This document shows, one piece after another, positions 10,647-25,965 of a stretch of DNA of 45,261 bases. The stretch is from Candidatus Scatovivens sp. (GTDB taxonomy: Bacteria; Bacillota; Clostridia; TANB77; CAG-508). Below the pieces are notes generated by a model that worked only from the letters and a program-made list of their open reading frames with translations, did no database searches and had not been told where the DNA came from. A program made the position numbers and the translations under genes. Location of the stretch: positions 1 to 45,261 of the forward strand of contig JAZQTI010000101.1 in assembly GCA_045630665.1 (NCBI GenBank). Direction: 5' to 3'. Within the stretch, counting starts at the first letter, position 1. The number at the start of each line of letters is the position of its first letter.

Positions 10647-11168
10647 ATGAGTGAGAAAATAGTAAATGCAATGTTAGGAGCTTTTGGAGGGTTAACTGCA
10701 ATAGCATATGGAAGAGAAATTTTAGTTTTTATAATATCATTAATGCCAATACTTGAATTAAGAGGAGGACTATTAGCAGCAGCATTGCTTGGATTAGAAC
10801 CATTACCAAGTTATATAATTAGTATCATAGGAAATGTGCTTCCAGTACCATTTATATTATTATTAATAACAAAGGTTTTATCATGGATGAAAAATAGCAA
10901 ACTTAAGTTTTTCAATAAAGTAGCAAATTGGTTAGATGAAAAAGTTGAAAAACATAAAGGACAAATAGAAAAATATGGATATTTGGGGGTTGTTCTATTT
11001 GTGGGAATTCCACTTCCTGGAACAGGTGCTTGGACAGGATCATTAATAGCTTCAGTACTTAATATGGATAGAAAGAAAACATTTATAGCTGTACTTGCAG
11101 GAATAGTTATGGCAAGTATAATAATGATGATTTTATCTTTTGGAGTAGTTGCAAACGTAATTCATTAA
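10647..11168 (+). CDS. Small multidrug-export-like membrane protein (COG2426 / Sm_multidrug_ex family)
   Basis: Family-typical motifs PILELRGG and GIPLPGTGAWTG. Four or five TM segments. Confidence 0.65.
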   Translation: MSEKIVNAMLGAFGGLTAIAYGREILVFIISLMPILELRGGLLAAALLGLEPLPSYIISIIGNVLPVPFILLLITKVLSWMKNSKLKFFNKVANWLDEKVEKHKGQIEKYGYLGVVLFVGIPLPGTGAWTGSLIASVLNMDRKKTFIAVLAGIVMASIIMMILSFGVVANVIH

Positions 11169-11176
11169 AATTAATC

Positions 11177-11207
11177 AAGACTTTACTTTAAAGTAAAGTC
11201 TTTTTTT
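11177..11207 (+). terminator. Intrinsic terminator
   Basis: Near-perfect palindrome AAGACTTTACTTTAAAGTAAAGTCTT followed by TTTTT. Confidence 0.8.
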
Positions 11208-11257
11208 GTGTTAAAAACAAAAATAAATGATATAAATACCGTAAAAAGTTAGTAAAT

Positions 11258-11286
11258 TTGAAAATTTACATAAAAAATGTTATAAT
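11258..11286 (+). promoter_or_regulatory. Sigma-A-type promoter driving GC-rich island A
   Basis: TTGAAA (11258-11263), 17-nt spacer ending in TGT, TATAAT (11281-11286). It is followed by a 5' UTR of about 115 nt with alternative pairings TACCTC/GAGGTA and GAATAC/GTATTC. Confidence 0.65.
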
Positions 11287-11410
11287 AAAATGTATAGCAT
11301 ATATTGTGTTACCTCAATTTGATTTTACATCTATTTTGGGAATACAACGAAAGTTCAAGAGGTATTCGTATACTCTTTTGCTATAAATTATTTTTAAAGG
11401 GGAAGACAAT

Positions 11411-11995
11411 ATGAGTAAGTGCGGAAATGATGAGCCCATTAAGCGGTTGTGTATGGCAATCCAGGAAGTGGTAAGAGAAGATTTACAGTGTGAGATTACC
11501 AAGTGTTATAATCACACCTACTCTATCATGAAGGTGATTGCAAATCCTGAAAAAGCATACACTGTGGAAGTAAAATTTCCTGCTGCTATTTGTGAAGGCG
11601 TTCATAATGATCCTGAATGTGAAGAATGGTCTATTGAGCGTTGGAAGCAAGTTGTTCGGAAGCTTCCGATTGAGTTTGCTGTCAAAGGACATACTCACAG
11701 CAGAATGATGGTAAAATCTAAACCCGAAGCAAATCCTCTCGAGTATGCCAAGTATTTCTGGAGAAAGTTTGACGACATGAAAGGTTGGAATATCAAAGTT
11801 GGTGCAGAAGAAACTATGCCCAAACTGCTTGAAACTGGAAATGAAGCGTCTTTAGAAGAGGCTGAGGATGAAACTGGGGCTATCGAAGCGCCGGAAATCC
11901 AGGAAGAAGTAATTGAAGAAAATCAATCTACTGCTCCGAAACAGAATCTCCAGGATGTCTATGGAATGATGGGAATGAGATTTGCTGCTATGTAG
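11411..11995 (+). CDS. Hypothetical protein, 194 aa, Cys-rich N-terminal half and acidic C-terminal tail (island A; compositionally foreign)
   Basis: Uninterrupted ORF with an RBS-like AGGGG 8 nt upstream of the ATG. G+C is 27/60 in nt 11641-11700. It uses codons (CGG, CTG, GCG, CCC, GGC) that are rare in the neighbours. I recognise no family motif. Confidence 0.7.
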   Translation: MSKCGNDEPIKRLCMAIQEVVREDLQCEITKCYNHTYSIMKVIANPEKAYTVEVKFPAAICEGVHNDPECEEWSIERWKQVVRKLPIEFAVKGHTHSRMMVKSKPEANPLEYAKYFWRKFDDMKGWNIKVGAEETMPKLLETGNEASLEEAEDETGAIEAPEIQEEVIEENQSTAPKQNLQDVYGMMGMRFAAM

Positions 11996-12007
11996 AGTAT
12001 ACAAACT

Positions 12008-12039
12008 AGAGACCTGTGCATGCAGGTCTCTTTTCATTT
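12008..12039 (+). terminator. GC-rich hairpin terminator of island A
   Basis: AGAGACCTG (12008-12016), loop TGCATG, CAGGTCTCT (12023-12031), then TTTCATTT. Confidence 0.75.
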
Positions 12040-12125
12040 ATAAAACTGCTATTTGTTAAGAAATGTTGAAATATCAGGGAAAATGTGATATATTATAATA
12101 GATATTGAAAAAAGAGGTTGATATA

Positions 12126-12677
12126 GTGTCAAAAGTTGAAAAAAAATTTGAAGATTATTTTAAAATTATAAAACATAAATTACCATATTGGAATGAGCTA
12201 CCAGAAATAGATTTATATATGGACCAAGTAGTAGCTTTGATGGAAAAATATATGTCTTTTCACAAAACAGATGAAAATACCAAGATAATAACTAATTCAA
12301 TGATAAACAACTATGTAAAACTTGGAATTATGCCAGCTCCTGTGAAAAAGAAATATTCTAGAGAACATATTGCATATTTAATAATAATTTGTTGTTTAAA
12401 ACAAACTCTTCCAATATCTGATATAAAAGATTTAATAGAAATAAGAGTAAAAAGGACATCAATAGAAGAAACTTTAAATTTCTTTAGTGACTTATATGAT
12501 TCTGTATTTAATACAGTAATAGCAATAGGAAAAAAATATAGTCAAAGAAATATTGGAGAAGATAAATTATTTACAGATACAGCTTTATATATGGCGATGG
12601 GATCAAGTAGTAGTAAATATATTGCTTCTCAAATTGTTGAATTAAACAAAAATGAAGATATAAAAAAAGTTGATTAA
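12126..12677 (+). CDS. DUF1836 domain protein
   Basis: YMDQVV...NNYVKLGIMPAPVKKKYSREHIAYLIIICCLKQTL matches the DUF1836 signature region. The GTG at 12126 lies 8 nt after AAGAGG. The ORF-track TTG at 12105 would overlap that RBS. Confidence 0.65.
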   Translation: MSKVEKKFEDYFKIIKHKLPYWNELPEIDLYMDQVVALMEKYMSFHKTDENTKIITNSMINNYVKLGIMPAPVKKKYSREHIAYLIIICCLKQTLPISDIKDLIEIRVKRTSIEETLNFFSDLYDSVFNTVIAIGKKYSQRNIGEDKLFTDTALYMAMGSSSSKYIASQIVELNKNEDIKKVD

Positions 12678-25186: not shown

Positions 25187-25239
25187 GCTAGATGGCAAAA
25201 CATTTTGTTCTCATAAAATTTGCAATGGAGGTAAGCATT

Positions 25240-25965
25240 ATGGATGAGAATCGTGTGTTCGAATTGCGCGTTCCTGAAGGCGCAGTAGTCAAAGACGTGA
25301 AATTCAATCCATATTGGGGCTTTGTCGCAGCAACGATGGAGGTCCTAGGGATTGCAATCACGTTTATCCGGACTGACTTCATAAAAGAGGTCAGGAGAGT
25401 CACATGGGATATGTCAGAAGTCCTTTCGGTATCTGATTACCATGAAGTGTTACCCAGTGTGGTTACCAAAAGTATCGAGAAATGCAAAGGAATTTTCATT
25501 TCCAGAGACTTTGCGATGGTGGACCCTGAGCTGGGAGAACTGGTTCCCAATTCTGGAGTTGTCAAAAGAGGTATGTGCTTCGATGAAGCCCCAAATGCTC
25601 TTCTGGAAATTCCCGGGATGGAAGCAAGTTTGCTTTATGGTGCGGTATATGATACCATTGGAAGATGGCTTATCGCAACCAAATCTCTTTCTTATGATGA
25701 ATGGGTCAACAGCCCTACAACTAAGAAAGAACAAGATGCAATTCTGGATCGAGAATGCGGCAACTGGACGATTCGAGAACTCTTCGGAGATATTTTCGAT
25801 ACTGAGTGGACAATGGAGTCCTATCAGCAGTATGCTGTGGCAAGAGAAGGAACACCGTTTTCCGACGGTGAAGCACTTTACCCCGCAAGAAAGCGGTATA
25901 CTTATCAAACCTGGATGAAACATTCCAAAGCAGCGGTAAGAACAATGTGGTCGTTTAAGGAGTGA
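25240..25965 (+). CDS. Hypothetical protein, 241 aa (island C; compositionally foreign, inside the dcw cluster)
   Basis: The ATG at 25240 lies 8 nt after GGAGG (25227-25231). The ORF is uninterrupted. G+C is 29/60 in nt 25261-25320, against 14/60 in murE nt 26221-26280. I recognise no family motif. Confidence 0.7.
   Translation: MDENRVFELRVPEGAVVKDVKFNPYWGFVAATMEVLGIAITFIRTDFIKEVRRVTWDMSEVLSVSDYHEVLPSVVTKSIEKCKGIFISRDFAMVDPELGELVPNSGVVKRGMCFDEAPNALLEIPGMEASLLYGAVYDTIGRWLIATKSLSYDEWVNSPTTKKEQDAILDRECGNWTIRELFGDIFDTEWTMESYQQYAVAREGTPFSDGEALYPARKRYTYQTWMKHSKAAVRTMWSFKE

Follow-up and report, generated by a model that had tools for sequence, protein, structure and literature searches.

Is a GC-rich gene that stands alone between AT-biased host genes a recent arrival, or can it be a native one? 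The question is raised by positions 11,258 to 12,039 of contig JAZQTI010000101.1, from a Candidatus Scatovivens sp. genome (GenBank assembly GCA_045630665.1). The whole stretch of DNA analysed, hereafter the window, comprises 45,261 nucleotides (nt; positions 1 to 45,261, forward strand). A first-pass annotation, made from the sequence and its open reading frames (ORFs), had described at this place a monocistronic unit encoding an orphan protein of 194 amino acids (aa), and had interpreted it as a horizontally acquired gene with a possibly regulatory leader. The gene (11411–11995, + strand) and its homologs are here called X, and the genome of the window is called G000. We consider it moderately probable that X is an old resident of its slot and a fast-evolving, often lost member of a family restricted to one order of Clostridia, with silent sites that are maintained GC-rich, and that it encodes a tethered accessory protein under post-transcriptional control.

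The gene and its family

The coding sequence lies where the first-pass annotation had placed it, ends with a TAG stop codon and represents a short form of the family. The region 11411–11995 is a real protein gene. In all homologs examined (over 30), the reading frame is open for 169–401 codons, and conservation of Trp, Pro and hydrophobic columns is seen in homologs at 94%, 87%, and 31–37% identity. In AT-rich genomes, a GC-rich island between genes is often a structured non-coding RNA, and such an RNA would agree with an island in a genome of 27.5% GC for which no known protein family is matched. It is scarcely credible here, given the open frames, the conservation at the amino acid level, the confident AlphaFold2 model that a shallow alignment gave, and the lack of an Rfam match. 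A conserved antisense ORF was also rejected, as the long antisense frames present in G075 and G005 are broken in the window.

The window protein had no match in Pfam, NCBIfam, PHROGs or PADLOC, the sole PHROGs row having E = 0.096, and one homolog presented a marginal QatB match in PADLOC (E = 0.014). The profile hidden Markov model search proposed in the first-pass annotation thus left its description, an orphan of unknown function, in place. A HMMER scan of 1.84 billion representatives retrieved 5 clusters, and a profile search of 5.8 billion proteins retrieved 13, none of them with a name or a Pfam domain. By whole-genome profile search, members were found in 13 of 75 Candidatus Scatovivens genomes and in 11 of 251 genomes of the order, distributed over 8 of its 40 genera. 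The HMMER, profile and whole-genome searches revealed no homolog outside this order, and none was present among the IMG/VR viral contigs or in the phage and plasmid collections. X therefore represents an undescribed family restricted to this order of AT-rich gut Clostridia, which comprises Candidatus Scatovivens and related genera. The possibility that X is a diverged paralog of its neighbour DUF1836 was discarded (hhalign probability of 0.07%).

Two forms of the protein occur in the genus. Short forms have 169–201 aa and long forms 297–336 aa, with an additional N-terminal domain of about 150 aa, and proteins of the two forms are only about 20–25% identical. Members from outside the genus are all long (316–401 aa), so the short form of the window clade is most simply explained as derived, by loss of the N-terminal domain. 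In the ancestral form, of about 300–400 aa, the N-terminal domain was followed by an alpha/beta core of 125 aa, a linker of low complexity, and an amphipathic helix at the C-terminus.

The whole-genome profile search also revealed further long-form paralogs at unrelated loci, which shows that its members are not strictly confined to the slot occupied by X. Neighbours of these paralogs are presumably HAM1/RdgB-like, Maf-like and RsmI-like proteins, as judged by eye from their N-terminal sequences. In genus g5 of family f5 (L126:387–998 and L127:2674–3285), X-like long forms adjoin a conserved GC-rich gene of 203 aa, with a G+C content at third codon positions (GC3) of 0.43–0.50.

History of the slot

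The upstream neighbour of X encodes a PF06695 (Sm_multidrug_ex) protein and the downstream neighbour a PF08876 (DUF1836) protein. The order Sm_multidrug_ex, X, DUF1836 was found in all initially recovered alleles (more than 10 variants), even where the outer neighbours differ. In the 27 loci for which both flanks were available, the slot holds a short form (5 loci), a long form (5), a sigma-70 gene (3) or another short sequence (2), and it is empty in the other 12, measuring 47–203 bp. The empty site that the first-pass annotation had suggested looking for in related genomes does exist.

A tree built from the two flanking proteins united the short-form carriers in a clade with support 99, inside which two empty sites are nested, and the long-form carriers in another clade (support 100), with one nested empty site, L060, which is sister to the occupied locus L059. 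Since empty sites are nested inside both carrier clades, the gene has been lost repeatedly. The L059 and L060 loci differ by a 1084-bp indel that takes out the exact promoter-to-terminator unit; one of its ends lies at the −35 element of the X promoter and the other at that of DUF1836. No repeat occurs at the borders except the 5-nt CTTGA, which is part of both −35 elements, and neither mobility genes nor long flanking or terminal repeats were found at the module borders. Short- and long-form loci have the promoter and two leader boxes in common. X is thus an old resident of the slot; together with its promoter and leader it has been passed on vertically, and repeatedly lost.

Other observations concern the same slot. 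In three other Scatovivens species (L043:2460–2945; L044 and L048) it holds a low-GC gene of 156–161 codons for a sigma-70 factor of the extracytoplasmic function type, with the Pfam domains Sigma70_r2 and Sigma70_r4_2. One TGA interrupts each of the three genes in frame, at codon 61 or 62; the frame is unchanged across it, and this codon sits exactly at the conserved Trp of region 2 (...HEKS-TGA-IIRVTINIC...). It could be read through as Trp or be a leaky stop that has been conserved; TGA terminates just 33 of the 861 long ORFs in G000. In one metagenome-assembled genome (G006), the arrangement TrkH-TrkA-Sm_multidrug_ex-X is present on two contigs, C6 (L116) and C13 (L063/L008), with different X alleles, which suggests strain heterogeneity within the bin.

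Evolutionary rate

Against its closest relatives, X has a synonymous divergence (dS) of 0.18, and its neighbours have 0.07–0.26. The ratio of non-synonymous to synonymous divergence (dN/dS, Nei-Gojobori, against L001) is 0.35 for X and 0.02–0.17 for the flanks. For other pairs, in which the Nei-Gojobori dN was divided by the four-fold-site distance, the ratio for X is about 0.2–0.9. Comparison with L003 showed 12 non-synonymous and 2 synonymous differences, counts that are too small for a test.

Divergence at four-fold sites, taken in identical codons and expressed as a composition-corrected distance, was about equal in X and its flanks (0.09/0.12, 0.56/0.51, 0.64/0.73, and 1.0/0.83, with one outlier at 1.07/0.38), which indicates that X has co-diverged with its neighbours. 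Alleles of X far older than the flanks, as the Nei-Gojobori dS would suggest, are by this measure mostly an artefact, since the flanks are extremely AT-biased and the dN of X is high. This high dN also explains why the X proteins are 32–36% identical where the flanking proteins are 88–94% identical. The protein evolves 5–20 times faster than those of its neighbours.

Composition and codon usage

The ORF has a GC content of 0.415 and a GC3 of 0.38, compared with window medians of 0.27 and 0.12 and a genome GC of 0.275. The contrast noted in the first-pass annotation is real, and its count of 27 G+C in the 60 nt at 11641–11700 was reproduced, but the switch that had been placed near 11305, inside the leader, is located at the start codon. 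There the GC content jumps to 0.45, while the 5′ untranslated region (UTR) has 0.28, the genome average, and the promoter and intergenic DNA upstream of it have 0.11–0.18. The same partition was observed in all alleles: leaders have a GC content of 0.15–0.28, coding sequences 0.35–0.50, and trailers 0.26–0.34; the 85-nt partial leader of L114, at a contig end, has 0.35. Paralogs at other loci have a GC3 of 0.24–0.43 and those of other genera 0.32–0.53, compared with 0.07–0.20 for their typical low-GC neighbours (0.10–0.20 in the other genera); some members also adjoin other GC-rich genes. The GC3 excess is therefore retained in orthologs and paralogs across species and is limited to the coding sequence.

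The direction of substitution was polarised by parsimony in three triplets. On the deeper branches, and with the reservation that such polarisation is error-prone with distant outgroups, all codon positions together presented 47, 20 and 38 GC>AT changes (105) against 61, 34 and 39 AT>GC changes (134), and synonymous third positions presented 23, 9 and 2 (34) against 29, 11 and 4 (44). For a neutral import in decay, about 5 GC>AT per AT>GC change would be expected, by our own calculation from a host equilibrium GC3 of 0.12 and a GC3 of about 0.42. The shortest tip branches alone showed such a bias, with 8 GC>AT and 1 AT>GC, mostly non-synonymous. The G/C-rich synonymous sites of X are stationary, and a fixation bias limited to the coding sequence keeps them so.

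These data bear on the two forms in which a foreign origin can be considered. The first is that of the first-pass annotation, in which a foreign, GC-richer gene landed recently between host genes and has not yet ameliorated. The GC3 of 0.38 over a background of 0.12, the site empty in 12 of 27 related loci, the lack of a known family, and the AT-biased tip branches are what such an event would leave, and to this extent the foreign-looking composition and the empty site described there stand. The recent date does not. In two deep Scatovivens clades the same slot is taken by orthologs whose promoter and leader are homologous, presence and absence agree with the flanking-gene tree, in which the losses are nested, and four-fold-site divergence equals that of the flanks. 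GC-rich paralogs occur order-wide, no donor and no phage, plasmid, viral or out-of-order homolog was found, the GC excess coincides exactly with the coding sequence, and mobility genes and long terminal repeats are absent. A recent acquisition is accordingly very unlikely.

In the second form, the gene would have entered once and long ago, when the ancestor of the order received it from a very GC-rich donor, and would still be slowly ameliorating everywhere. The range of allele GC (0.35–0.50) and the AT-biased tip changes agree with it, and a starting GC3 of about 0.9 is, by our own estimate, arithmetically compatible with the flank divergence within the genus. The deeper fluxes, however, are far from the expected ratio of about 5:1, paralogs in other genera and families still have a GC3 of 0.32–0.53, and about 85 unrelated ORFs of the genome share the same codon usage; we regard an ancient import as improbable. 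Long vertical residence, with a composition maintained in place, explains these observations better.

Highly expressed housekeeping genes show the opposite codon usage to X. A codon set optimal for high expression was considered and rejected, as GC3 is 0.06 in GroEL, 0.10 in DnaK, 0.09 in RecA, and 0.10 in FtsZ. In X, CAG is used at 64% against 3% in the genome background, CTG 27% against 0.5%, and AAG 52% against 8%. This usage is shared with the other GC-rich ORFs of the genome, which prefer CAG, CTG, AAG and ATC, whereas ATA, TTA and NCA are avoided. About 85 of the 1219 ORFs of G000 with at least 100 codons have a GC3 of at least 0.28 (the median is 0.115). They are scattered over many contigs, mostly single, mostly orphans, and mutually unrelated; two are false ORFs inside rRNA genes, and one (C127) is, from its N-terminal sequence read by eye, presumably membrane pyrophosphatase-like. 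They do not constitute one gene family, since only 2 paralog pairs were found among them. A dedicated tRNA set for G-ending codons was also considered and dropped, as the tRNA list of a 72%-complete genome is uninformative. The window itself contains a second single-gene GC-rich island (25192–25965), which encodes 257 aa with a GC of 0.44 and a GC3 of 0.43, and is unrelated to X (BLASTP E = 0.33).

The rare G/C-ending codons may limit or condition the translation of X. A wider proposal is that X is one of about 60–85 unrelated, mostly orphan genes in which such codons are kept as a shared translational gate, the whole set being translated efficiently only in a particular state of the tRNAs or of their modification, while a leader that mimics the Shine-Dalgarno (SD) sequence would add a second gate on X. 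We consider this proposal doubtful.

Structure of the protein

The AlphaFold2 model of the short form, built on an alignment of 19 sequences, consists of a confident core, a linker, and a tail. The core is an alpha/beta domain formed by residues 6–132 (11426–11806, + strand), with a predicted local distance difference test (pLDDT) score of about 93. Its elements follow the order helix, three strands, helices, two strands, helices, and the residues A44, P46, P57, W78, W117, and W126 are conserved. Residues 133–194 are disordered in the model, except for a low-confidence helix at 180–189. Residues 133–179 (11807–11947, + strand; pLDDT below 50) form an acidic linker with 15 Asp/Glu against 2 Lys/Arg, in agreement with the acidic C-terminal third described in the first-pass annotation. 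The length and composition of this linker differ between alleles; it is acidic in short forms and rich in His and Gln in long forms. The model of the long form has two domains and a mean pLDDT of 78.6.

The structure prediction that the first-pass annotation had proposed thus gave a well-defined core, for which no known fold was detected by Foldseek or VIA-align. Foldseek gave no match at E ≤ 0.001 against the PDB for either the short- or the long-form model, nor against BFVD for the short-form model. The wide VIA-align search with both models reached a best Z of 3.2, and a sequence profile search of the PDB gave no match to the window protein. Zincin cores (selecase, jannalysin, HtpX) recur with both models, only at Z 2.2–2.6 and with Foldseek E above 1, and TTHA0227 appears in both Foldseek lists among the weak rows (E above 1). 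The HExxH motif that zincin-like metallopeptidases with a minigluzincin, SprT or HtpX core carry on the helix following the beta-sheet has no conserved counterpart in the family. The sequence CEGVH found on that helix in the window protein (residues 61–65) is specific to its lineage, and other members carry unrelated residues. The six Cys that had been pointed out in the N-terminal half are present in the window protein, at residues 4, 14, 27, 32, 61, and 70, but they are not a trait of the family, because only C70 is kept among the short forms.

The protein ends in a hydrophobic segment (11948–11992, + strand) that terminates in ...YGMMGMRFAAM and includes the helix predicted with low confidence at 180–189. 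The pattern [FY]-x-x-M-x-[ML]-[RK]-F-x-x-M-COOH is kept in the window and in the short-form alleles G005, P0003, and P0004, whereas G075 and P0005 retain only its aromatic-x-x-Met end. In long forms and paralogs the C-terminus is a cationic amphipathic tail (FGFMKKxFGK or NFFKNLF type), whose net charge is +1 to +6 over the last 12 residues (at least +3 except in P0015) and whose hydrophobic moment is 0.45–0.80; L062 is an exception, which ends earlier and without the cationic tail. A core and an N-terminal domain without recognisable fold, joined to a common C-terminal amphipathic tail, characterize a new protein family. It would be a reasonable choice for structural and functional studies of uncultured gut Clostridia.

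The leader

A sigma-70-type promoter, TTGAAA-N17(TG)-TATAAT, is located on the + strand at 11258–11286, as had been described; it agrees with the consensus at 11 of 12 positions, and a TG precedes its −10 element. The transcription start deduced from this element gives a 5′ UTR of about 118 nt (11293–11410, + strand), with a folding energy of z = −2.24 against shuffles. Across 9 aligned orthologous leaders, the −35, TG and −10 elements are invariant, although the coding sequences behind them are just 20–35% identical. The Rfam comparison suggested in the first-pass annotation brought no support for the leader, which had no match to the covariance models at E ≤ 10; the scan of 11100–12150 gave only two weak matches, both outside it.

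Box 1, TACCTC (11310–11315, + strand), is anti-SD-like, and its ACCT is invariant in 9 of 9 aligned leaders. Box 2, GAGGTA (11359–11364, + strand), is a putative decoy SD, mostly invariant across the aligned leaders, and lies inside hairpin 2, AAGAGGTAT/ATACTCTT (11357–11377, + strand; −6.9 kcal/mol, z = −3.57), whose stability was equalled by 0 of 200 shuffles. The hairpin also holds an anti-SD-like CUCUUU. In the short forms, box 2 doubles as the 5′ half of this hairpin (AAGAGGUAU/AUACUCUU) and CUCUUU as its 3′ half, and AAGAGGTA...ACTCTTTT is preserved in 5 of 5 short-form leaders. The SD read from the sequence, AGGGGAAG (11398–11405, + strand), lies 5 nt ahead of the ATG, and an aligned G-rich block at this real SD is conserved among the leaders.

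Two mutually exclusive pairings had been proposed for this leader. The pairing of TACCTC (from 11310) with GAGGTA (from 11359) is conserved, as is the hairpin AAGAGGTAT/ATACTCTT, while that of GAATAC (from 11340) with GTATTC (from 11362) is specific to the lineage of the window. When the segments from box to box were folded alone, box 1 paired with box 2 in the minimum-energy fold in 8 of 8 cases (7 orthologs and the window). This fold encloses a second helix in three long-form orthologs, with z of −3.6 to −5.6; z is −1.7 in L063 and −1.4 in L062, the latter with a different inner fold. In the whole-UTR minimum-energy fold of the window, from which the box 1–box 2 pairing is absent, the real SD is paired with CUCUUU, and the segment UAUUCGUAU, which adjoins the real SD on its 5′ side, pairs across the AUG, so that SD and AUG are sequestered. 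From these predicted foldings, the leader can alternate between masking the SD and leaving it free. A regulatory role, which the first-pass annotation had considered possible, is plausible in view of the conservation and of the alternative pairings. The two boxes are not a motif common to the GC-rich genes of the genome, since TACCTC...GAGGTA occurs only here and at one chance site, with 1.7 expected.

The upstream region of X resembles that of DUF1836. The two promoters are 80–82% identical over 45–50 nt, and the decoy SD AAGAGGTA resembles the SD of DUF1836. Comparison of the upstream regions of the window (11258–11310 and 12066–12125), and of those in L040–L064, showed in both TTGAAA-N17(TG)-TAT(A/T)AT, a CATATT-type block and AAGAGGTA. 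The two promoter regions look paralogous and flank the module as direct repeats, which could explain the recurrent clean deletions. The leader may thus have arisen by duplication of the DUF1836 upstream region, or an operator may be common to both. In the DUF1836 5′ UTR of L041, two tandem copies of the 13-mer ATAGCATATCAAG directly follow the −10 element, and this duplication could be an operator-like element.

This resemblance raises the alternative that X is a modulator of the adjacent helix-turn-helix (HTH) protein DUF1836, or a member of its regulon. X is located directly upstream of DUF1836 in every slot-resident allele examined, its promoter and first transcribed bases resemble those of DUF1836, its decoy SD matches the DUF1836 SD, the slot holds a sigma factor instead in three other species, and DUF1836 has been placed in the HTH clan (PMC3146951). 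Most species, however, have DUF1836 without X, paralogs of X are found at unrelated loci, and DUF1836 is 75–93% conserved where X is hypervariable, which is not expected for an obligate partner. A prediction of the complex between X and DUF1836 had a score of 0.00, which counts neither for nor against binding. A functional link with DUF1836 seems to us quite improbable.

Borders of the module

The module is bordered on the left by the intrinsic terminator of the upstream Sm_multidrug_ex gene (11177–11202, + strand), with an 11-bp stem followed by a T-run; an equivalent hairpin is also present in the empty-site relatives L040 and L041. The terminator of the module itself, the hairpin reported in the first-pass annotation, is located at 12008–12031 (+ strand) and has a 10-bp stem with 5 GC pairs, followed by the T-run TTTTCATTT. 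The right border is the promoter of the DUF1836 gene, at 12066–12094 (+ strand). Five terminator-like sites were observed in the region, compared with 0.4 expected. This arrangement, between a terminator on one side and the DUF1836 promoter on the other, corresponds to the one first described, and X with its own promoter and terminator is supported as a self-contained, monocistronic accessory gene.

Proposed role

Of the roles considered for X, that of a conflict-type or niche-specific accessory protein is the likeliest, and it is inferred from the features above. In our best guess, it would be a cytoplasmic protein tethered by its C-terminal helix, through the flexible linker, to an anchor, which may be a partner protein or the membrane, at its inner face. 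The target engaged by the variable core would be fast-changing or dispensable, which makes a conflict-type or niche-specific function the likeliest. Its output would be set after transcription: a consensus promoter drives a leader with competing pairings, in which the two anti-SD-like boxes (UACCUC and CUCUUU), the decoy SD (GAGGUA) and the real SD may compete to pair.

A specific version of this role would be a membrane-associated factor of the phage-exclusion or abortive-infection type. The polymorphism of presence and absence with repeated loss, the fast protein evolution, the stand-alone unit with its own promoter and terminator, the amphipathic C-terminal tail of the family, and the paralogs scattered among housekeeping genes are all consistent with such a factor. 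There is no PADLOC match, except for the marginal QatB match of one homolog, no defence gene adjoins X, no enzymatic motif is conserved, and dN/dS is below 1 in all well-sampled pairs. Phage exclusion may be entertained as a possible but rather unlikely specialization of the accessory role.

Several points weigh against the interpretation adopted here. The backbone of the flank tree is unresolved, and one origin followed by losses is the most parsimonious history, not a proven one. For the maintained composition, besides the uncertain polarisation already mentioned, either selection or biased gene conversion may be the cause of the GC fixation bias. The tail of the window protein is weakly amphipathic, with a hydrophobic moment of 0.30 and a net charge of +1, so that membrane binding is better supported for the long forms. 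The box 1–box 2 hairpin of the window has z = −0.54, no better than shuffled sequence, and the leader helices present no double compensatory change, only single changes compatible with wobble (G-U) pairing, in L063. The boxes could instead be conserved because they mark a protein-binding site, or because they share ancestry with the DUF1836 promoter and 5′ UTR.

Comparison with known systems

MinD and FtsA are targeted to the membrane by an amphipathic helix at the C-terminus, and MinD of E. coli ends in ...KGFLKRLFGG. The C-terminal helix of the X long forms resembles this anchor, as far as the sequence analogy goes: it is a short predicted helix at the extreme C-terminus, behind a flexible linker, and the tails of long forms and paralogs mix aromatic residues with Lys and Arg (FGFMKKxFGK). 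The globular part of X, in contrast, is unrelated to the ParA/MinD ATPases or to the actin-like FtsA, and the short-form tail of the window is more hydrophobic, barely charged, and ends in Met.

Alternative pairing between SD and anti-SD sequences in 5′ leaders controls translation in known systems, and SD-like sequences can act as 5′ stabilisers of mRNA, as the STAB-SD of cryIIIA. As in such leaders, that of X has an SD-like decoy (AAGAGGUA) far upstream of the start codon, and anti-SD-like boxes that could mask either the decoy or the real SD. It differs from them in that no ligand-binding core, leader peptide, Rfam match or compensatory covariation was found.

The raw mutation pattern of bacteria is AT-biased (PMC2936535, PMC2936529), and it is countered by a GC-ward fixation bias, through selection or biased gene conversion (PMC2936529, PMC2936535, PMC4450053). 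X behaves similarly in that its recent changes are AT-biased and its long-term substitutions are balanced above the mutational equilibrium GC. In X, however, the bias is gene-specific, stops at the borders of the coding sequence, and keeps GC3 about 3-fold above that of the genome. A gene-specific force can thus hold synonymous sites about 3-fold above genomic GC3 in the long term. In X this occurs in a protein that otherwise evolves almost freely, and the codon bias is not the usual one of high expression. The codon gate considered above would be a mirror image of the bldA/TTA control in Streptomyces, or of the codon-biased 'modification-tunable transcripts'.

The locus invites, finally, comparison with the islands of horizontally acquired ORFans for which Lawrence and Ochman reportedly proposed the amelioration model. 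X shares with such islands an atypical composition, the absence of homologs beyond a narrow lineage, and a site that is empty in relatives. Unlike them, it has a composition that is not decaying and no donor, it is orthologous across clades, and it carries a native promoter and leader. The standard signs of transfer, namely atypical GC, codon usage, orphan status and an empty site, give the wrong answer here.

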